DNA of 64,000 nucleotides from the NCBI GenBank assembly GCA_023264445.1, contig JAHFMN010000001.1, forward strand, positions 69,928 through 133,927. Direction: 5' to 3'. Source of the stretch: Candidatus Kaiserbacteria bacterium. Lineage in GTDB: Bacteria > Patescibacteriota > Minisyncoccia > Phycocordibacterales > Phycocordibacteraceae. Position numbers and translations under genes: made by a program. Positions 8,152 to 62,784 of the stretch are shown piece after piece; the stretch's first letter is position 1; each line of letters begins with the position of its first letter. Below the pieces are notes generated by a model, which had not been told where the DNA came from, made no database searches, and saw nothing but the letters and a program-made list of their open reading frames with translations.

Positions 8152-9117
8152 ATGCACACCGTCGTCGGAGTATTGCGGGGAGGTCCAAGCCGTGAGCATG
8201 AAGTATCGCTCAAGACTGGTGCCGCGATGCTCGCGAACCTTCCGGAGGAACGATACTCGCCACGAGATATCTACATCGATCGTCAGGGCGTGTGGCACGA
8301 TCGCGGCCGTCCGACACCGCCCGAGCGCATATTGCGGCAGATAGACGTCGCGCTCATAGGCCTTCATGGCGAATACGGAGAGGATGGGGGGGTGCAAAAA
8401 CTCCTCGAACGTTTCGGCGTCCCATACACGGGCGCGGATTCCTTCGGCTCGTATCTTGCGATGCATAAGCTCATGGCGAAACAGCGTGCGGAGGAAGCAG
8501 GATTACTTACTCCAGAGTTCCGCTATATCGAAGACGTAAAGGATATTGAGGCGGGAGCGCAAGACATCATCCGCTCGCTCCATCAGCCGGTTGTTGTGAA
8601 GCCCGCTATGTGGGGCTCTTCGGTCGGCGTTTCTATCGTGGGCGGCTATGCTCCAGTGCTTGCCGCCATTAAAAAACTCTTTGCAGATGGTGCGCAGAGC
8701 GTAGTCATCGAGGAGCTCATCCGTGGGAAGGAAGCGACTGCCGGCGTGGTCGAGGGCCTGCGGGGCGAAGCACTCTACGCGCTCCCGCCGATAGAGATTC
8801 TTCCTCCCGAAGATGACTTTTTCTCATACGATGCGAAATATTCGGGAGTAACTCGCGAAATCTGCCCAGGGAATTTCTCTCGTGTCGTCACGGAAGAGCT
8901 CCAGAGGGCGGCGAAGATAATGCATCGCACGCTCGGCCTGCGCCACTACTCCCGAAGCGATTTCATCGTTGCCCCGAAGGGCGTCTACTATCTGGAAACC
9001 AATACGCTCCCCGGACTCACGACTGAATCGCTCATGCCCAAGTCGCTCGCCGCGGTCGGCGTCAAGTTCTCTGACTTCCTGTCGCATCTGGTCAATCTCG
9101 CGCTTGGTAGAAACTGA
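8152..9117 (+). CDS. ddl: D-alanine--D-alanine ligase
   Basis: MHTVVGVLRGGPSREHEVSLKTG N-terminus and an ATP-grasp body. The ATG at 8152 follows the uvrC stop. Confidence 0.88.
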   Translation: MHTVVGVLRGGPSREHEVSLKTGAAMLANLPEERYSPRDIYIDRQGVWHDRGRPTPPERILRQIDVALIGLHGEYGEDGGVQKLLERFGVPYTGADSFGSYLAMHKLMAKQRAEEAGLLTPEFRYIEDVKDIEAGAQDIIRSLHQPVVVKPAMWGSSVGVSIVGGYAPVLAAIKKLFADGAQSVVIEELIRGKEATAGVVEGLRGEALYALPPIEILPPEDDFFSYDAKYSGVTREICPGNFSRVVTEELQRAAKIMHRTLGLRHYSRSDFIVAPKGVYYLETNTLPGLTTESLMPKSLAAVGVKFSDFLSHLVNLALGRN

Positions 9118-9187: not shown

Positions 9188-9260
9188 GGGCCCGTAGCTC
9201 ACTTGGTAGAGCGCCTCATTTGCAATGAGGAGGTAACCGGTTCGATCCCGGTCGGGTCCA
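9188..9260 (+). tRNA. tRNA-Ala (anticodon UGC)
   Basis: Cloverleaf GGGCCCG acceptor, D arm GCTC/GAGC, anticodon stem CCTCA/TGAGG with loop TTTGCAA, and T arm ACCGG-TTCGATC-CCGGT. It has G3:U70 and A73. CCA is not encoded. Confidence 0.85.
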
Positions 9261-9312
9261 CATACATCTCAGTTAAGTGCGATGCTCCACAGCGGGCTGA
9301 TATACTGCACGC

Positions 9313-10086
9313 ATGGAACTCATCGCAGGAGATAAGGAGCTCGAGGCGCTCAATGCACAATTAGATGACCCGAATCAGTTGCAGGCGTACAAGACTCCGC
9401 ACGACAACTATCATCCGCTCTTCCTTCCGCGTCTTCTCGGCCGCGTCTTGGTCGGCTGCGGGAACCTGGTGTATGGGCATGAGCCGTCGTATCTGAAATT
9501 CCGGTCGATAGAAATCGTCGCGCGCGTGCCATACCAATCATGGTCTTCTGCGGTCTATACGCTCCTCACCATGTTCTATGCCGATGAGCACAAGGCCATA
9601 CGATTCTCAAACGTTTCCCGCTATGCGCGCATCGCGCAAGATAACGAGACGATGCACGTCGTAGTCATCTCCCAGCTTGCGCGCACAGAGGGGAGAGCAG
9701 GGCTCATACGGCATACGCTTCTGCCGATGTTCTTTGCGTTCTTTTATTTCTGGGCATCCTACATCCTCTATCTGATGCGGCCTCGCTGGTCTTTCGAACT
9801 CAATTATCTCTTTGAACAGCACGCATTTGACCAATATAATCGCTTTCTTGAACAGTACCGCGAAGAACTGAAAAAGAAGCCGGCTGAAAGCGAATTCCTC
9901 ACCTGGTACGGGCGCAATCCGCGCTCTCAATTTGAGTTTTTCCAATCCGTCCGCAATGACGAACTGATCCACCGCAATCAGTCCGTCCGTGCGGTGAATA
10001 CAGAAGCGGATGCTTACCGTGTACATTCTTTGAAATTTGTTGCGATTGGCGCTGTTATCGTTCTGCTTGTTCTTATTCTGATATAA
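9313..10086 (+). CDS. alternative oxidase (AOX/PTOX)-like di-iron carboxylate protein with a C-terminal TM helix
   Basis: Segments NETMHV (like NERMHL), RNDELIHRN (like RADEAHHR), FEQHA (like LEEEA) and IEIVARVP match the four AOX iron-ligand helices. A C-terminal hydrophobic helix is present. Confidence 0.6.
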   Translation: MELIAGDKELEALNAQLDDPNQLQAYKTPHDNYHPLFLPRLLGRVLVGCGNLVYGHEPSYLKFRSIEIVARVPYQSWSSAVYTLLTMFYADEHKAIRFSNVSRYARIAQDNETMHVVVISQLARTEGRAGLIRHTLLPMFFAFFYFWASYILYLMRPRWSFELNYLFEQHAFDQYNRFLEQYREELKKKPAESEFLTWYGRNPRSQFEFFQSVRNDELIHRNQSVRAVNTEADAYRVHSLKFVAIGAVIVLLVLILI

Positions 10087-10145
10087 GAAGAAAGTCTCCG
10101 CACGTCTGGGAATCCGGTCCCGCATCTGGTATGGTACGAGCGTGC

Positions 10146-10219
10146 GCGCTCTTAGCTCAGTTGGTTAGAGCGTTCGCCTCACACGCGAAAGGTCATAGGT
10201 TCGAATCCTATAGAGCGCA
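10146..10219 (+). tRNA. tRNA-Val (anticodon CAC)
   Basis: Acceptor GCGCTCT/AGAGCGC, D arm GCTC-AGTTGGTTA-GAGC, anticodon loop CTCACAC, and T arm ATAGG-TTCGAAT-CCTAT. Confidence 0.85.
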
Positions 10220-10236
10220 CAAGAGGTGTTCTATGT

Positions 10237-10307
10237 CGGGCCGGAGTATGCCGGTAGTACATGCGCTTCGGGTGCGTAAGGACCGAGTTCAATTCTCGGC
10301 GGCCCGA
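10237..10307 (+). tRNA. tRNA-Pro (anticodon CGG)
   Basis: Acceptor CGGGCCG/CGGCCCG, anticodon stem TGCGC/GCGTA with loop TTCGGGT, and T arm CCGAG-TTCAATT-CTCGG. The D stem is short (3 bp). Confidence 0.75.
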
Positions 10308-10328
10308 CAAAGAACATCTCTCAAGAGG

Positions 10329-10402
10329 CGGGCTATCGTATACCGGTAGTACGCATGCATGGGGTGCATGTAGACCGGGTTCGATTCCCGGTAGCCCGAC
10401 CA
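10329..10402 (+). tRNA. tRNA-Pro (anticodon GGG), CCA encoded
   Basis: Acceptor CGGGCTA/TAGCCCG, anticodon stem CATGC/GCATG with loop ATGGGGT, and T arm CCGGG-TTCGATT-CCCGG, followed by ACCA. Confidence 0.75.
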
Positions 10403-10430
10403 AATATCGTCATGCTAGAATCGTGCGCAC

Positions 10431-10563
10431 GGGCCATTAGCTCAGCTGGTAAGCCGGTCAAAATCCGAAACCCAGTCCGGCTTCCCGACGGCACTTGCCT
10501 CGCATGAACAATATGAAGACATATGTTCATGCACTCGGCTCGCTTGCCGGTAGAGCGCGTTAT
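10431..10563 (+). pseudogene. tRNA-Ala 5' fragment with a ~100-nt structured insertion in the D-loop
   Basis: 21 nt GGGCCATTAGCTCAGCTGGTA are identical to the 5' end of the tRNA-Ala(CGC) 170 nt downstream. They are followed by a 101-nt insert with two hairpins, then GAGCGCGT matching tRNA positions 22-29. No 3' half or T arm follows. Confidence 0.6.
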
Positions 10564-10600
10564 TGTGATCCTATAGGTTTTCAGTATCCTGTAAGTAATC

Positions 10601-10673
10601 GGGCCATTAGCTCAGCTGGTAGAGCGCGTCATTCGCATTGACGAGGTCAGCGGTTCGACTCCGCTATGGTCCA
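10601..10673 (+). tRNA. tRNA-Ala (anticodon CGC)
   Basis: Acceptor GGGCCAT/ATGGTCC with G3:U70, D arm GCTC-AGCTGGTA-GAGC, anticodon loop TTCGCAT, and T arm AGCGG-TTCGACT-CCGCT. Confidence 0.85.
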
Positions 10674-10698
10674 CTGGGCTTCAAAGGGAAACAATCGC

Positions 10699-10769
10699 GG
10701 GCCTATGGTGAAGCGGTATCACGCGTCCATGGCATGGACGAAGTCGGGGTTCGACTCCCCGTAGGTCCA
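10699..10769 (+). tRNA. tRNA-Ala (anticodon GGC)
   Basis: Acceptor GGGCCTA/TAGGTCC with G3:U70, anticodon stem CGTCC/GGACG with loop ATGGCAT, and T arm CGGGG-TTCGACT-CCCCG. Confidence 0.8.
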
Positions 10770-10822
10770 CAAAAGTACGAAGTAGTTTTGTGGACCTATG
10801 CGCCATGCCTGCGCATGGCGCG
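10762..10822 (+). terminator. two consecutive perfect hairpins after the tRNA array
   Basis: GGTCCACAAAA-loop-TTTTGTGGACC is an 11-bp stem that reuses the tRNA 3' end. GCGCCATGC-CTGC-GCATGGCGC is a 9-bp stem. There is no T-run, so function as a terminator or processing site is uncertain. Confidence 0.35.
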
Positions 10823-10990: not shown

Positions 10991-11464
10991 TTGTCTCTCA
11001 TGGACCTCGAAGCGATCAGAAAGCACGGAATAGTCTCCTATCTCGCGAAGGAGAAAATGGCAATTCTTTCCACTCATGCATCCGATGGCTCAATTGATGC
11101 GATGACGGTGTTTTTTATGGCCGACGAAAACCTCGACTTCTTCTTCATGACAAAAGTGGATACGAGGAAATATCAAAATATGGCCGCTAATCCGCACGTG
11201 TCCCTGACGATTTCAAATGCCGAGACGTTAGAGACCGTAGAAGCAAAAGGGACCGCAAGCGTGATGACGAGCCCGAAAGACATCACGGACCGTATGACCT
11301 CCATCATAAATAAGGGTAAATACGAAGGAATGCCCTGGGCTCCGCCAATCGCCAAGCTCAATGCAGGACAGTATGTGATTATTAAGGTCGTGCCCACGTG
11401 GCTTCGGTACGGTGTATTTCTCAATGAGTTCCCGAAGGGGGAATATTTCAAACAGATTATTTAG
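10991..11464 (+). CDS. pyridoxamine 5'-phosphate oxidase-like FMN-binding family protein (general stress protein 26-like)
   Basis: Split-barrel PNPOx-like sequence pattern. The ORF-track start is TTG; an ATG lies at 11000. Confidence 0.6.
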   Translation: MSLMDLEAIRKHGIVSYLAKEKMAILSTHASDGSIDAMTVFFMADENLDFFFMTKVDTRKYQNMAANPHVSLTISNAETLETVEAKGTASVMTSPKDITDRMTSIINKGKYEGMPWAPPIAKLNAGQYVIIKVVPTWLRYGVFLNEFPKGEYFKQII

Positions 11465-15787: not shown

Positions 15788-16732
15788 ATGGATAAACCAA
15801 AAACAACGCCAAAAGATTTCTTCCTGTGGGCCGGGGCGATGGTTGCATTCTATTGGGCCATCATTGCCTACACGTTTCTTATTTTTGATTACATCAACTA
15901 CGCGCTTCCGAACGCACTTACGTATTATCCAAGCGATCCCTATCAGAGCGGCATCAGCTACGAAATGGCTTCAGTAATCGTTCTCCTACCGCTCTATATG
16001 TTCCTCATGCAGCTCATTCGTCGTGGCATTGTTCTCGATGCGTCCCGTAAAGAAATCTGGGTGCGCCGCTGGGCGCTCATTCTCACGCTCTTCGTCGCCG
16101 GCGTGGCGATAGCAGGAGACCTCATCACGCTTCTCACCACCTTCCTCAATGGGGAAGAACTCACGATGGCATTCATTCTCAAAGTGCTCACCATCTTCCT
16201 TATTGCAGCAGGAGTCTTCATGCACTTTACTGCGGACCTCAAGGGATACTGGGAGCTGTTTCCAAGCCGAAAACGTCTCCTTGGTGTCAGCGTCGGAATG
16301 CTCGCACTCGGCACGATTGTCGCAGGCTTCTTCATCGTAGGTACGCCGGCCGAAGCACGTCTTGCGCGCTTTGACACACAGAAGGTAAACGATTTGCAGA
16401 ACATACAGTCGCAAGTCGTGTACTACTGGCAGGCGAAGCAGCAACTGCCGATGACGATCACTGACCTCAATAACTCTCTCTCCTACGGCCCAGTACCGGT
16501 GGATCCCCAGACAGGGAAGTCGTACGTCTACCAAACGGTCGGGGCACTCTCCTTCAAGCTGTGTGCAGTGTTTAACGCAGAAAGCCGCACAGGTGTCATG
16601 CCCATCGAAAACCGCCCGATTCCGGTAGGGGAGAAGGGTCTCCCGGATAATTGGCAACATGACGCCGGTCAGGTGTGTTTCGACCGGACTATCGATCCGA
16701 GCTTCTATCCACCGCTCACGAAGCAGCTGTAA
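15788..16732 (+). CDS. hypothetical membrane protein (N-terminal multi-TM region plus C-terminal soluble domain)
   Basis: Six predicted TM helices followed by a domain of about 110 aa. No confident family assignment. Confidence 0.6.
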   Translation: MDKPKTTPKDFFLWAGAMVAFYWAIIAYTFLIFDYINYALPNALTYYPSDPYQSGISYEMASVIVLLPLYMFLMQLIRRGIVLDASRKEIWVRRWALILTLFVAGVAIAGDLITLLTTFLNGEELTMAFILKVLTIFLIAAGVFMHFTADLKGYWELFPSRKRLLGVSVGMLALGTIVAGFFIVGTPAEARLARFDTQKVNDLQNIQSQVVYYWQAKQQLPMTITDLNNSLSYGPVPVDPQTGKSYVYQTVGALSFKLCAVFNAESRTGVMPIENRPIPVGEKGLPDNWQHDAGQVCFDRTIDPSFYPPLTKQL

Positions 16733-16755
16733 CAGCCGGTTACGGTATCGGCCAC

Positions 16756-19590
16756 ATGGCGTACGACCACACAGAGATCGAGAAAGCAGCCCGAGAGAAA
16801 TGGGCCAGTCTTAATCTCTACACGGTCGACTTCTCTGATAATGTAAAAGACCCGTATTATCTCCTTGTCGAGTTCCCGTACCCCTCGGGTGATCTCCATA
16901 TCGGGCATTGGTACGCGTTTGCGGTGACCGACATCTATGCGCGCATGCTGCGCGCGCGGGGAAAGAATGTTCTGTTCCCAATCGGATTCGATGCGTTCGG
17001 ACTGCCCGCGGAAAATGCAGCTATCAAGAATGGCCTTGATCCGAAGGAGTGGACGTATAAGAACATGGAACGCATGCGGCAGCAGCTGACAACGATGGGC
17101 CCGTCATTTGATTGGTCAAAAGAAGTTGTGACCTGCGAACCGGGGTACTACCAGTGGACGCAGTGGCTCTTCGTGAAGCTTTTTGAGCAAGGACTTGCCG
17201 AGCATCGTGAAGCAGCAGTCAAATGGTGTCCGAAGGATCAGACGGTGCTTGCAAACGAACAGGTCATCGACGGCTGCTGTGAGCGCTGTAGTACGCCAGT
17301 GGAAGAGAAAAGACTGACGCAGTGGTTCCTCAAGATTACCGACTATGCCGAGCGACTCCTCACCGGTCTCGATGCGCTCCCATGGCGCGAAGAGATAAAG
17401 GAAGCACAGCGTGCATGGATAGGGAAAAGCGAAGGCGCGTATCTGGAATTTCCAATCGTTGGTCGCGATGAGAAGATTAAGGTCTTCACAACGCGTCCCG
17501 ACACGGTGTTCGGTGCCACGTATGCAGTGCTTGCGCCGGAGCACGCGCTTGTCTCGGCGCTGTTGCCTGCTATTTCAAATAAAAAAGAAGTTGAAGCATA
17601 TGTGCATGCCACTGCACAGAAGACTGAACGAGAACGTAGTGAAAACAAAGAGAAGACCGGTGTGAAGCTCGAAGGAGTGAACGCGGTACATCCCGCAACA
17701 AATGAGGAAATTCCAATTTTCGTCGCCGATTATGTCATAGGTTCGTATGGCACCGGCGCGCTGATGGCAGTCCCAGCACACGATGAGCGAGATAGTGAGT
17801 TTGCACAAAAAATGGGCATACCCGTTCGTCAAGTTATTGCACCGCGGTATCACCAGACGACTGAGCCAGGAATCTATCGGCCGGAGGAACCGACCACAGA
17901 AAAAGACGGCATCATCGTCCTCATCAAACACTGGAAGGAAGAGAAATACCTCGGTCTCAAGTGGAAAGAGGTCGCATGGGGAACCCTACTCACCGGCGGT
18001 GTTGACGAGGGACTCACGCCAGAAGAAACGGTGTTCAAAGAAATCAAGGAGGAAACAGGATATCTGCACCTACAGATCAAACAGAAATTCGGAGTCGTCG
18101 ATGGACTCTTCTATCACGTACCGAAGCAGAAGAATCAGCATGTACACGGGCATATGTTTTATGTCGAGCTGAAAGATGGCGAGCAAGAAGCCATCAGCAA
18201 GGACGAATCTTCAAAACACGACCTAGTCTGGCTCACGGTAGAAGAATTGGAAACATTCCTTACGCCCGATACGCACAAACACACCTTGAATCTATTCCGT
18301 AACGGGCCGCAACCGTACACCGGAAATGGCTCTCTTGTCAGTTCGGGCGAATTTTCCGGCCGCGAGAGTGAAGATGCAAAATGGGAGATTGTGAAGCATG
18401 TCGGCGGAGAAAAGACCACTCAATATCGCATTCGGGATTGGCTCGTTTCCCGCCAGCGATACTGGGGATGTCCTATACCGATTGTCTATGATCCTGAAGG
18501 GAAGCCGCGTCCGATCCCGAAGGAGCATCTGCCGTGGCTTCTGCCAACCGATGTAGACTTCACGCCCACCGGCAAGGCGCCACTTGCGTCTTCAAAGGAA
18601 TTGCAGGAGCGCGTGACGAAGCTATTCGGCGAAGGATGGACGCCAGAATACGACACGCTCGATACCTTCGTTGATTCCTCCTGGTACTTCCTCCGCTATC
18701 TTGATCCGAAAGATCTGCATGATTTCTCGGATGCAGCTCTTATGAAGAAATGGATGCCGGTCAACCGATACTCGGGCGGGAGCGAACACACGACGATGCA
18801 CCTTCTCTATGCTCGGTTCTTTACGAAAGCGCTCTATGACCTCGCACTCGTGCCCGTGGATGAGCCGTTTACCGAACGTTTCAATCGCGGACTCATCATG
18901 GGTCCCGATGGACAAAAAATGAGCAAGTCAAAAGGGAACGTCGTGAATCCGGATGAATTTGTGCAGAAATATGGCGCAGATGCCGTACGGCTTTTCCTCG
19001 CTTTCATCGGCCCGTATAACGAACCGGGAAGTTATCCATGGAGCTTGGAAGGCGTTGCTTCCATGCGTAAATTCCTTGAGCGCGTTATGCGCCTCACGGA
19101 ACGGGCTCAAGACGTATCCGAAGTGGGTAATGAACTGCAGCAGGCGATTGCACGGGCAAGCATAAAGGTCTCCAAAGACGGTGATCGATTTAAATTCAAT
19201 ACCGGCGTTGCAGCACTCATGATTCTCGTCAACGAACTTGAAGCTTCCGTAGCTGTGCCAAAAACTGCATTGAGTTCTTTCCTCGTCATGCTCGCTCCTT
19301 TTGCGCCTCATATCGCTGAATACCTATGGGAGAAACTCGGAGGAGAAGGGAGTATCCACCAGCAGGCGTGGCCAGTGTTTGACGCGAGCACTCTTGTCGA
19401 GAGTTCAGCGGAAGTTGTGGTTCAGGTCAACGGCAAGCGGCGTGGCTCGCTCACCCTCGCCACCGATATTTCCGAGGAGGAAGCCGTTCGTGCTGCACGT
19501 GCGCTTCCCGCTGCCGCCGCGGCGCTTGCCGGAAAGGATCCTTCGCGCACCGTATATGTCCCGGGGAAAATCATCAATCTGGTCGGATAA
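16756..19590 (+). CDS. leuS: leucyl-tRNA synthetase carrying an inserted Nudix-hydrolase-like domain
   Basis: HIGH (HIGHWYAF), the CP1 editing domain (TTRPDT...MAVPAHDERD), RDWLVSRQRYWG and KMSKS. In addition there is a ~150-aa insert between the AHDERD motif and SSGEFSG that contains a Nudix box GGVDEGLTPEETVFKEIKEETGY. Confidence 0.92.
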   Translation: MAYDHTEIEKAAREKWASLNLYTVDFSDNVKDPYYLLVEFPYPSGDLHIGHWYAFAVTDIYARMLRARGKNVLFPIGFDAFGLPAENAAIKNGLDPKEWTYKNMERMRQQLTTMGPSFDWSKEVVTCEPGYYQWTQWLFVKLFEQGLAEHREAAVKWCPKDQTVLANEQVIDGCCERCSTPVEEKRLTQWFLKITDYAERLLTGLDALPWREEIKEAQRAWIGKSEGAYLEFPIVGRDEKIKVFTTRPDTVFGATYAVLAPEHALVSALLPAISNKKEVEAYVHATAQKTERERSENKEKTGVKLEGVNAVHPATNEEIPIFVADYVIGSYGTGALMAVPAHDERDSEFAQKMGIPVRQVIAPRYHQTTEPGIYRPEEPTTEKDGIIVLIKHWKEEKYLGLKWKEVAWGTLLTGGVDEGLTPEETVFKEIKEETGYLHLQIKQKFGVVDGLFYHVPKQKNQHVHGHMFYVELKDGEQEAISKDESSKHDLVWLTVEELETFLTPDTHKHTLNLFRNGPQPYTGNGSLVSSGEFSGRESEDAKWEIVKHVGGEKTTQYRIRDWLVSRQRYWGCPIPIVYDPEGKPRPIPKEHLPWLLPTDVDFTPTGKAPLASSKELQERVTKLFGEGWTPEYDTLDTFVDSSWYFLRYLDPKDLHDFSDAALMKKWMPVNRYSGGSEHTTMHLLYARFFTKALYDLALVPVDEPFTERFNRGLIMGPDGQKMSKSKGNVVNPDEFVQKYGADAVRLFLAFIGPYNEPGSYPWSLEGVASMRKFLERVMRLTERAQDVSEVGNELQQAIARASIKVSKDGDRFKFNTGVAALMILVNELEASVAVPKTALSSFLVMLAPFAPHIAEYLWEKLGGEGSIHQQAWPVFDASTLVESSAEVVVQVNGKRRGSLTLATDISEEEAVRAARALPAAAAALAGKDPSRTVYVPGKIINLVG

Positions 19591-61670: not shown

Positions 61671-62417
61671 TTAGCAAGAAACGTTTGAGACGATGTAGTT
61701 ATAAGCTTCGTCCACCGTATCCACGATTGTGTAGAGTGTCATATCTCCCTCATCGATAGCTGCACGTTTCTGATACAGCTCCTTTTCAATGAACGCAGAC
61801 AGCGGTTCCCAGAATTTCTTACCGAAGAGGAGGATAGGCACTTTACGGATCTTCTTGGTCTGCACGAGCGTCACGATTTCAAAAAATTCGTCCAGCGTGC
61901 CGAACCCACCCGGAAAATAGACATAAATTTCAGAGGCGTAGGTCAGCATCACTTTGCGTACGAAGAAATGATCGAAACTAAATTTTTCGGTGAGGTAGGG
62001 ATTGTAGACCTGGGAATCCGGCAGATTGATATTGAGCCCGACCGATACGCCGCCTGCCTCAAACGCTCCCTTATTCGCGGCCTGCATGATGCCAGAGCTG
62101 CCGCCGGTAATCACGGCAAAACCTTTTTTTGCCAATCGGCCCGCGAGTTCCTCCGCATGTTTGTATGCGGCATCTTCTAGAGAAGTACGCGTGCTGCCGA
62201 AGAAGGATACGGCAAGGCCGTGGCGGCGAATGATGTCAAATCCCTCTATGAATTCCGACATGATCTTGAACACGCGCCAGGACTCCACTTTTTTCGGCTT
62301 GCAGACGAGCAGTGGACGATCCTCCGGCATCGTACGCTGTCCTTCATGCACAACTTTCGCAAGCCGCTCGGCCGTTGTTTCCATAATTGGCGCATCGCGT
62401 GTTAGATCATCATTCAT
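61671..62417 (-). CDS. LOG-family nucleotide phosphoribohydrolase (TIGR00730 Rossmann-fold protein)
   Basis: AVITGGSSGIMQAANKGAFEAGGVSVGLNINLP...PGGFGTLDEFFE. The start is set at MNDDLTRD; the upstream ORF-track extension overlaps the neighbouring genes. Confidence 0.8.
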   Translation of the reverse strand: MNDDLTRDAPIMETTAERLAKVVHEGQRTMPEDRPLLVCKPKKVESWRVFKIMSEFIEGFDIIRRHGLAVSFFGSTRTSLEDAAYKHAEELAGRLAKKGFAVITGGSSGIMQAANKGAFEAGGVSVGLNINLPDSQVYNPYLTEKFSFDHFFVRKVMLTYASEIYVYFPGGFGTLDEFFEIVTLVQTKKIRKVPILLFGKKFWEPLSAFIEKELYQKRAAIDEGDMTLYTIVDTVDEAYNYIVSNVSC

Positions 62418-62442
62418 AGATAGTAATGATATCAGAGAAAAA

Positions 62443-62784
62443 TTATTTGCAATTTGCAGCGAGAGCATAACCAGCTTCTTCTGCTTCTGCGGCAGAAGCG
62501 AACCACACCTTGTTTGCCTCTGAAATACGGTTCGCGCCAGCGCATCCTGGTGGATAATATTTTGTCCCCGATTTTGAAGCGACGAACTGCCCTGCCACCG
62601 CAGTTGCAGCAAGCGGAACGATTCCGGGCGCAGGAACTCTTTCGGCCCGCTCGTCCAGGCCCGTAAGATACCCGAGTCCGAAGCTCGAAACGGAGGCGGA
62701 AACGAGAATGCCGACCGTAAGCAAGTCCCGCGGTATGCGCGCGATGAAGCTTTTGCATTTTTCGCGCACATCTGCTATAATCAT
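62443..62784 (-). CDS. small membrane-anchored protein with a C-terminal Ada-type Zn-binding-like motif
   Basis: TM helix followed by KYYPPGCAGANRISEANKVWFASAAEAEEAGYALAANCK (C...N.v.F.s.eeA..aGY..C pattern). The start is set at the Met that avoids overlap with rpmA. Confidence 0.45.
   Translation of the reverse strand: MIIADVREKCKSFIARIPRDLLTVGILVSASVSSFGLGYLTGLDERAERVPAPGIVPLAATAVAGQFVASKSGTKYYPPGCAGANRISEANKVWFASAAEAEEAGYALAANCK

Follow-up and report, generated by a model that had tools for sequence, protein, structure and literature searches.

Within a 64,000-nucleotide stretch of contig JAHFMN010000001.1 from a Candidatus Kaiserbacteria bacterium, hereafter referred to as the window, an open reading frame (ORF) at 9313–10086 on the forward strand (ATG start) encodes a 257-residue di-iron carboxylate protein. 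The protein belongs to the AOX/PTOX superfamily, named after the alternative oxidases (AOX) and PTOX, but is neither an AOX nor a PTOX in the strict sense: it represents a distinct subfamily that is specific to Paceibacteria-type bacteria of the Candidate Phyla Radiation (CPR). It is fairly probable that the enzyme is a quinol:O2 oxidoreductase of the non-proton-motive kind and draws on scavenged quinone, thereby removing oxygen and disposing of reducing equivalents. All features of the gene and of the tRNA locus described below lie on the forward strand.

Family assignment and fold

A sequence-only reading of this DNA had picked out four ligand motifs in a 257-residue frame at 9313–10086 (IEIVARVP, NETMHV, FEQHA and RNDELIHRN), and all four are found; chance falls far short of explaining them. 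The start codon is backed by the 32 aligned homologs, in which M1 is nearly invariant and the N-terminus conserved. The AOX/PTOX identity proposed in that reading is upheld: both the best hidden Markov model (HMM) and the best fold are those of AOX, not of Coq7, rubrerythrin or MiaE, and the spacing of the ligands is conserved. Pfam AOX (PF01786) is the best-scoring model, with 33.3 bits against a cutoff of 22.7 (E=5e-8), and no NCBIfam model matches the protein.

An AlphaFold2 model of the monomer, computed with 32 homologs, has a predicted local distance difference test score (pLDDT) of 86.5 and a predicted template modelling score (pTM) of 0.85. The model shows the AOX fold, a four-helix bundle with flanking, putative membrane-binding helices, and when it is compared with the Protein Data Bank (PDB) by Foldseek the 14 best matches are all to Trypanosoma brucei alternative oxidase (TAO), with a probability of 0.96–1.00. 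PDB sequence searches with the single sequence and with the family profile retrieve no AOX; a broader profile that includes PTOX-type members is the only one to reach TAO (E=3e-8). The CPR family profile itself recovers bona fide AOX/PTOX proteins, which score 90–120 bits to PF01786, at E-values of 1e-13 to 1e-17.

The second-best Pfam model is COQ7 (PF03232), whose 20.4 bits fall under the cutoff of 23.5. A di-iron hydroxylase or oxygenase in the manner of Coq7 (demethoxyubiquinone hydroxylase; PDB 7SSP), modifying a lipophilic substrate such as scavenged quinone or lipid, is an unlikely alternative: membership of the COQ7 family was rejected on the missed threshold and on the structural matches, the best of which are to TAO.

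The active site

The six iron ligands E67, E112, H115, E168, E217 and H220 do not vary among 32 family members, and the same six are invariant across three subfamilies that include PTOX-type proteins (90–120 bits on Pfam AOX). N111, Y175 and D216 are likewise unchanged throughout the family, and they stay so when the CPR, Acidimicrobiales and PTOX-type groups are compared. In the TAO structure, a homodimer, the di-iron centre is held within a four-helix bundle (alpha2, 3, 5 and 6) by four Glu and two His; helices alpha1 and alpha4 attach to the membrane, and Tyr220 takes part in catalysis (PMC9243770). Residues of the window protein were mapped onto TAO by a profile alignment built from the three-subfamily alignment (E=3e-8).

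The first ligand helix, YLKFRSIEIVARVPY (9490–9534), places E67 (9511–9513) opposite TAO E123 and K62 opposite TAO R118; F63, E67, A70, P73 and Y74 are invariant across the subfamilies. The second carries the motif DNETMHV (9640–9660), where N111, E112 (9646–9648) and H115 (9655–9657) correspond to TAO N161, E162 and H165. Along the third, FEQHAFDQY (9811–9837), E168 (9814–9816) matches TAO E213 and Y175 (9835–9837) the catalytic Y220, each tyrosine lying seven residues past the third ligand Glu. H170 stands opposite TAO E215, a PTOX-like state, and A171 opposite A216; E168, H170, A171 and Y175 are all invariant. The fourth helix bears the motif RNDELIHRN (9952–9978), with D216, E217 (9961–9963) and H220 (9970–9972) equivalent to TAO D265, E266 and H269. 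The ligands of successive helices are spaced 45/56/49 residues apart in the window protein, compared with 39/51/53 in TAO and 39/51/51 in AtAOX1A (PMC9243770).

In AtAOX1A, conserved residues line a channel that leads from the di-iron cavity to the bilayer (PMC9243770). Judged by their offsets from the ligands, K62, I66, A70, F167, H170 and A171 of the window protein stand opposite the channel residues R178, L182, A186, L272, E275 and A276 of AtAOX1A.

Hydrophobic helices and N-terminus

The protein opens with a conserved segment that is specific to the family (residues 1–35; 9313–9417), in which E11, L13, L17, Y26, K27 and Y33 are invariant among the 32 homologs. The AlphaFold model folds this segment into two short helices, which by analogy with TAO might form a dimerisation arm. 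An amphipathic, hydrophobic model helix follows at residues 37–54 (9421–9474; hydrophobic moment 1.54, mean Kyte-Doolittle hydropathy 1.13): it lies outside the TAO-aligned region, and its place in the order of helices makes it a candidate membrane-binding helix in the position of TAO alpha1. The equivalent of TAO alpha4 falls within the aligned region: it is a strongly hydrophobic model helix at residues 132–155 (IRHTLLPMFFAFFYFWASYILYLM; 9706–9777), with Kyte-Doolittle values of 1.25–1.68 (up to 1.68 over 19 residues).

The C-terminal transmembrane helix of the sequence-only reading is also found. Residues 239–257 (10027–10083) form a hydrophobic, transmembrane-type helix with a mean Kyte-Doolittle hydropathy of 2.9. 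This helix is optional in the family: 37 of 116 members carry it and the copy at L008, a locus syntenic with the window, is without it.

Relation to known oxidases

An exhaustive search of 1.84 billion representatives returned 481 clusters at E<=1e-3, only 17 of which lie at E<=1e-30. The 150 best representatives sort into three motif types, and none of them is of the mitochondrial AOX type. The CPR type is characterized by E(V/I)(V/I)ARVPYxSW, QDNETMHVVVIS, FExHAFxQY and VRNDE(L/I)(I/V)HRN; an intermediate type by LELVARVPYQAWE, QDNEQWHLLILE and DFEDHAEHEY; and the PTOX type by LETIARVPYF, NELHHLLIME, VExHAxxTY and IRDDExxH. A neighbour-joining distance tree (155 columns, a TAO segment as the single outgroup, 100 bootstraps) unites the CPR sequences in one clade in 100/100 bootstraps, apart from the PTOX and Acidimicrobiales groups. 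The tree does not settle which of these two is the sister group of the CPR clade (bootstraps 8–12). Mean identities are 29% between CPR and PTOX sequences, 30% between CPR and Acidimicrobiales-type sequences and 15% between CPR sequences and TAO.

PTOX (IMMUTANS) proteins are, in sequence, the closest experimentally characterized relatives, with 28% identity over 188 residues (pairwise E=5e-20); the PTOX-type comparison sequence is a member of a cluster that contains 'immutans protein [Nannochloropsis oceanica]'. The window protein and PTOX have in common the motif style ARVPY, NExxH, ExHAxxxY and DDExxH. A defining trait of PTOX is an insertion of ∼18 residues between the third and fourth ligand helices. 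The window protein lacks this insertion, belongs to a separate clade and has no plastoquinone or photosynthetic context. The missing insertion and the separate CPR clade led to the rejection of PTOX sensu stricto as an identity for the protein.

The top-scoring neighbours of the CPR family profile outside CPR, at 109–131 bits, are Acidimicrobiales/Ilumatobacteraceae proteins of the intermediate type, a group of more than 4,600 proteins labelled 'alternative oxidase' on which a literature search found nothing relevant. These proteins resemble the CPR family in length (230–260 residues), in their ligands and in a weak Pfam AOX score (17–38 bits); they differ from it in an identity of only about 30%, in motifs of their own (QDNEQWHLLILE and DFEDHAEHEY) and in forming a separate clade. 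Free-living and aerobic, the actinobacteria that host them synthesize quinones themselves.

Mitochondrial and proteobacterial AOX sensu stricto are characterized by LET(V/I)A(A/G)VPG, NERMHL, LEEEA and RADEAxHR. The window protein has ARVPY, NETMH, FEQHA and RNDELIH in their place and an identity to TAO of 15%, and this identity too was rejected. Compared with TAO (PDB 3VV9), it shows ARVPY instead of A(G/A)VPG and ExHA instead of EEEA; furthermore, a conserved N-terminus is peculiar to the CPR family, and about one-third of its members, the window copy included, have a hydrophobic C-terminal anchor helix. Unlike the hosts of mitochondrial AOX, the CPR hosts are bacteria without known quinone synthesis.

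Distribution in CPR bacteria

The AOX-like protein is not an oddity of one genome. A word-indexed search gathers 1,107 clusters, the best 120 of which are 61–76% identical to the window protein, and all of these carry PF01786; named sources among the best 120 are Parcubacteria C7867-001, Kaiserbacteria, Yonathbacteria, Lloydbacteria, Paceibacterota and Minisyncoccia. When one genome per GTDB species is scanned, a relative turns up in at least 182 species genomes; the scan was pattern-seeded, so the figure is a minimum. Almost all of the clusters and species genomes bear a Parcubacteria or Paceibacteria label, and the 80 loci retained from the 182 stretches have Paceibacteria-type names. The labels 'Candidatus Saccharibacteria', 'Gammaproteobacteria' and 'Bacillota' on some metagenome-assembled genomes look like placeholders: L008 carries the Saccharibacteria label, yet it shares synteny with the window, and protein identity is 71–85%. 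The CPR-type setting of the window is consistent with its gene content, which is all housekeeping, and with the labels of the homologs. In the 32 aligned homologs, which come from different candidate lineages, the columns are on average 67% identical, and the identities of the clusters to the window protein indicate that the family is under purifying selection.

Several homologs are already auto-annotated as 'alternative oxidase', and 'ubiquinol oxidase' also occurs in databases. As many members bear one of these labels, the assignment to the AOX/PTOX family is in itself not new. No description of the CPR subfamily was found in the searchable literature: no paper joins 'alternative oxidase' with Parcubacteria, and searches for Patescibacteria or CPR together with 'alternative oxidase' turn up only asides, or one CPR hit noted in passing. 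A eukaryote-centred survey reports one CPR AOX hit and attributes it to transfer from Proteobacteria (PMC9540462).

Proposed quinone supply and physiological role

Acting as a quinol oxidase, the AOX-like enzyme would reside on the cytoplasmic membrane, probably as a dimer, the window copy being held by its extra C-terminal anchor. The four-helix bundle would hold the di-iron centre through E67, E112-x-x-H115, E168 and E217-x-x-H220; two quinol molecules would be taken from the lipid phase and oxygen reduced to water without proton pumping. Since quinone synthesis is not known from these bacteria, the quinone, of the menaquinone or ubiquinone type, would probably be scavenged from a host along with membrane lipids. 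The predicted role is oxygen scavenging or protection together with redox balancing in (micro)oxic habitats, rather than energy conservation; AOX-type enzymes pump no protons (PMC9243770).

The same puzzle, a quinol-dependent oxygen reductase in a CPR genome devoid of a quinone pathway, is posed by the cytochrome bd and bo3 oxidases of Parcubacteria and Saccharibacteria, although these are heme proteins that are unrelated to the AOX-like protein and build a proton-motive force. Nelson and Stegen described a cytochrome bd quinol oxidase and an F1F0 ATPase in Parcubacteria C7867-001 from oxic groundwater, found neither quinone biosynthesis nor a quinone-dependent NADH dehydrogenase, and proposed that the quinones are host-derived (PMC4508563). 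The C7867-001 genome carries a 68%-identical AOX-like homolog, which is unmentioned in that paper. In other CPR genomes, bo3 oxidases without partner complexes have been read as oxygen scavengers (PMC9938205, PMC5220378). CPR genomes that encode quinol oxidases but no quinone biosynthesis are thus on record (PMC4508563). The suggestion in the sequence-only reading that the protein may use another substrate gains no positive support: conservation extends both to the catalytic Tyr and to the counterparts of the AOX quinol-channel residues.

Several observations weigh against a scavenged-quinol oxidase. The PF01786 match is weak and spans residues 109–223 only, in the C-terminal half of the protein; the Foldseek matches to TAO have TM-scores of about 0.5 at 14–18% identity; and the identity of the window protein to TAO is about 15–17%. 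The correspondence to the AtAOX1A quinol channel follows from offsets in the sequence relative to the ligands, and not from the structure of a complex, whether docked or solved. The genomic context is silent: the 64-kb window and ∼3.6 kb upstream of it hold only housekeeping genes and none for quinone biosynthesis, and the window contains no quinone reductases (NDH-2, GlpD, SDH and the like), cytochromes or ATP synthase. Nor does any quinone gene or reductase recur within 10 kb of the AOX-like gene in 80 related loci. A typical CPR genome is estimated at ∼0.6–1 Mb, of which the inspected stretch makes up about a tenth.

A conserved operon is not apparent either: when ∼1,500 ORFs from the 80 loci are clustered, no neighbour family occurs in more than 21 loci and none is respiratory. 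At one locus, L006, a flavin adenine dinucleotide (FAD)-dependent enzyme abuts the AOX-like homolog; it resembles amino-acid oxidases and is not GlpD or NDH-2. A trypanosome-style pairing that joins glycerol-3-phosphate dehydrogenase to AOX finds no support in this arrangement.

A further step, which is possible but for the present tentative, would be to regard the AOX-like enzyme as the principal oxygen reductase of Paceibacteria, in place of heme-copper or bd oxidases, run on quinol of the host membrane. This proposal draws on the occurrence of the gene in 182 or more species genomes, on the retention of catalytic and quinol-channel residues, on the lack of a conserved reductase partner and on the co-occurrence with cytochrome bd in C7867-001.

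The absence of quinone genes from the window, and of any that recur near the relatives, also accommodates a different donor. The protein could reduce oxygen, or reactive oxygen or nitrogen species, with electrons from a non-quinol source such as a soluble flavoprotein, and so be a detoxifying oxidase that is independent of the quinone pool. A PPOX-class flavoprotein gene follows the tRNA array in the window, TrxB/AhpF-type reductases are encoded within 10 kb in 6 of the 80 loci and msrA/msrB lie close to one homolog; soluble ferritin-like di-iron proteins are moreover known to act in defence against reactive oxygen species. However, no such neighbour is conserved across the AOX-like family, and the protein retains membrane helices and AOX quinol-channel residues that would be superfluous for an enzyme with a soluble donor. 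A non-quinol donor is improbable, to the same degree as the Coq7-like activity.

A variable tRNA slot and the origin of the gene

The gene is flanked by tRNA genes on both sides, as the sequence-only reading had noted; those of either flank are called by ARAGORN and Rfam. Upstream, the gene for D-Ala-D-Ala ligase (Ddl; 8152–9117; Pfam Dala_Dala_lig_N/C), which was used as an anchor, precedes tRNA-Ala(UGC) at 9188–9261 (Rfam 66.8 bits), the upstream border of the slot. Downstream, the border is an array at 10146–10770 that is kept in relatives: tRNA-Val(CAC) (10146–10220), tRNA-Pro(CGG) (10237–10308), tRNA-Pro(GGG) (10329–10402), tRNA-Ala(CGC) (10601–10674) and tRNA-Ala(GGC) (10699–10770).

This slot between tRNA-Ala(UGC) and tRNA-Val(CAC) is a hotspot of gene-content variation, in which the AOX-like gene is a long-resident accessory cargo. 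Ddl was used to search a metagenome collection for empty sites and retrieved 80 related loci, where tRNA-Ala(UGC) follows Ddl in most cases with enough downstream sequence; the Hainich groundwater wells are among the sources of close relatives. Both tRNA-Ala(UGC) and tRNA-Val(CAC) could be ordered in 19 of these loci and the AOX-like gene is present in none of them. Ddl identity to the window is 70–82% in 17 of the 19 and 53–54% in L144 and L146, a range that brackets the value of L008. Seven loci have an empty junction of 22–35 nucleotides (L095–L097, L101, L107, L115 and L116, some being duplicates of the same population), three a non-coding junction of 129–295 nucleotides (L091, L103 and L112) and nine a junction occupied by other genes (L102, L105, L111, L118, L120, L133/L134, L144 and L146). 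It is this state of the 19 relatives, empty, non-coding or differently filled, that identifies the slot as a hotspot and the AOX-like gene as accessory. The alternative cargo includes a ∼310-residue Trypsin_2 serine protease (five loci), a 473-residue protein that is weakly NMO-like, acidic-repeat membrane proteins similar to DUF1003/DUF948, a 516-residue polytopic membrane protein and unknown proteins of ∼100 residues. The downstream edge of the inserted cargo can be located by homology: the native upstream region of tRNA-Val in the window, GTCTGGGAATCC...TCTGGTATGGTACGAGCGTGC (10104–10145), has its counterpart TCTGGGAATCTAA...TTCTGATATGGTA ahead of tRNA-Val in the gene-less L091, L103 and L112.

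The gene was already in place in the common ancestor of the window organism and L008. L008 displays the same order as the window, with UvrA-like, UvrC, Ddl, tRNA-Ala(UGC), the AOX-like gene and tRNA-Val/Pro/Ala, and the 74% identity of the AOX-like proteins falls within the range of the flanking proteins (UvrA 85%, UvrC 71%, Ddl 79% and DUF5671 71%). The direction of change, gain in the lineage of the window and L008 as against repeated loss, is argued from parsimony and not from a tree.

The sequence-only reading had regarded the tRNA genes as a typical landing site for acquired DNA. For this slot, with its changing content, the description holds; it does not apply to the family at large, where 16 of 73 AOX-like genes (22%) lie within 200 nucleotides of a tRNA gene compared with about 20% of the other ORFs at the same loci, and an enrichment was thus rejected. 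Some spurious ORFs are counted in the background, and a single tRNA-His(GUG) synteny group accounts for 12 of the 16 cases. Elsewhere in the family the gene is found in unrelated housekeeping contexts. Integrase genes are absent from the slot in the window, in L008 and in the 19 relatives, and att-like repeats do not flank the AOX-like gene of the window: a tRNA-targeted integrative element, or genomic island, was rejected on these grounds.

Tracts reminiscent of tRNA occur in the gene-less slots too. Duplicated 3'-end fragments of tRNA-Ala (e.g. CTGTACGGTCCACA) are present in L091 and L103, the latter also with a partial second tRNA-like sequence, and look like scars of past insertion or excision. 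In the window, the gap of ∼200 nucleotides between tRNA-Pro(GGG) and tRNA-Ala(CGC) (10422–10600) contains a match to the first ∼21 nucleotides of tRNA-Ala(CGC) at 10431–10453 and a piece resembling a D-arm and anticodon stem at 10546–10564. As neither ARAGORN nor Rfam calls them, both pieces are probably rearrangement scars of the tRNA array.

Around the AOX-like homolog of C7867-001 (L089/L090, 1781–8107), a Prim-Pol/PriCT_1/AAA_25 primase-helicase, an HTH_17 protein and a 1025-residue AAA_21 protein are encoded upstream, and an ArsR-type regulator and a cation-efflux gene then follow. This block suggests a mobile-element neighbourhood.

The adjoining primase island in C7867-001, the varying content of the slot in 19 relatives and the dismissal of a CPR hit as a proteobacterial transfer in the eukaryote-centred survey would fit a gene inserted at a tRNA gene that either came in recently by horizontal transfer from outside CPR or is a contaminant introduced during binning or assembly. 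Such an origin is nevertheless very improbable. Measured against 68 ORFs of the window, the composition of the gene is native, with a GC content of 0.512 (z=-0.9), a third-position GC content of 0.603 (z=+0.1) and a codon-usage log-likelihood that is better than the window average (z=+1.0); there is no compositional signal of horizontal transfer. The syntenic L008 copy, the absence of integrase and att repeats and the single CPR clade, about 29% identical to the nearest outside groups, all argue against such an origin, as does the interior position of the gene in a 255-kb contig.

Least credible of all is the notion that the gene is an oxidase relic, decaying or devoid of function, left without substrate in a reduced genome: quinone-linked genes are absent from the window and the distribution is patchy, with the slot often lacking the gene in relatives, but the reading frame is intact, the catalytic residues are all invariant, mean column identity remains high across the homologs and codon adaptation exceeds the window average.

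Expression signals and other features of the window

The spacer between tRNA-Ala(UGC) and the ATG of the AOX-like gene measures 51 nucleotides (9262–9312) and contains no Shine-Dalgarno sequence; no convincing pair of sigma-70 hexamers (-35/-10) and no convincing intrinsic terminator flank the gene. A TATACT box at 9300–9305 ends 7 nucleotides short of the ATG. The lack of a Shine-Dalgarno sequence and of a -35/-10 pair, together with the position of this box, suggests that the gene may be expressed from a leaderless mRNA or co-transcribed with tRNA-Ala(UGC).

The flavoprotein that follows the tRNA array is a 157-residue protein of the PPOX class (FMN/F420 split-barrel; 10991–11464, forward strand) that scores below all NCBIfam cutoffs. 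A 32%-identical homolog is encoded near an AOX-like gene only in L042, and there is no sign of a functional linkage.

Genes in the window encode TGT, UvrB, UvrA, UvrC, Ddl, the PPOX-class flavoprotein, MscL, SWIB, YchF, leucyl-tRNA synthetase, a sigma factor, YceG, MnmA, nucleases, UDG, an M13 peptidase, several aminoacyl-tRNA synthetases, RpoA, ribosomal proteins, GrpE/DnaK/DnaJ, ScpAB, MraY, FtsW, MurG and peptidases. The leucyl-tRNA synthetase (971 residues; 16675–19590, forward strand) harbours a NUDIX hydrolase domain (PF00293; residues 410–531, 45 bits against a cutoff of 21.1) directly behind the CP1 editing domain (residues 246–409), an unusual fusion of a synthetase with NUDIX. SLOG cluster4 and 'possible lysine decarboxylase' (LOG-like) domains occur together in a 366-residue protein at 61671–62771 on the reverse strand.

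Significance

CPR bacteria, or Patescibacteria, are usually portrayed as anaerobes that live by fermentation and in which electron-transport chains are ancestrally absent. What makes the AOX-like family interesting is the organisms that carry it: both quinones and respiration are believed to be missing from them, yet a probable quinol oxidase is widespread among them. The main survey of oxygen reductases in Patescibacteria was confined to heme-copper and bd oxidases, which it detected in 0.6% of single-cell genomes (PMC7507113). This count changes with the presence of a third, unrelated class of oxygen reductase in at least 182 Paceibacteria-type species, which also joins a growing body of evidence for life with oxygen among many CPR bacteria (PMC12577380). 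The subfamily is also bacterial, compact (∼230–260 residues) and deeply branching, beside the Acidimicrobiales group, which makes it useful for rooting the evolution of AOX/PTOX and for studies of a minimal scaffold.

If the enzyme is an ordinary oxygen scavenger, the outcome is a modest refinement of annotation. As the enzyme would need a lipid-soluble quinol, and the cells are not known to synthesize one, it offers a testable handle on whether episymbiotic CPR bacteria import host quinones along with lipids. If it were the principal oxygen reductase and ran on host quinol, the family would provide direct genomic evidence that the ultra-small Paceibacteria tap the respiratory quinone pool of their hosts, and the quinol would be used either for protection against oxygen or for bleeding reducing power from the host.

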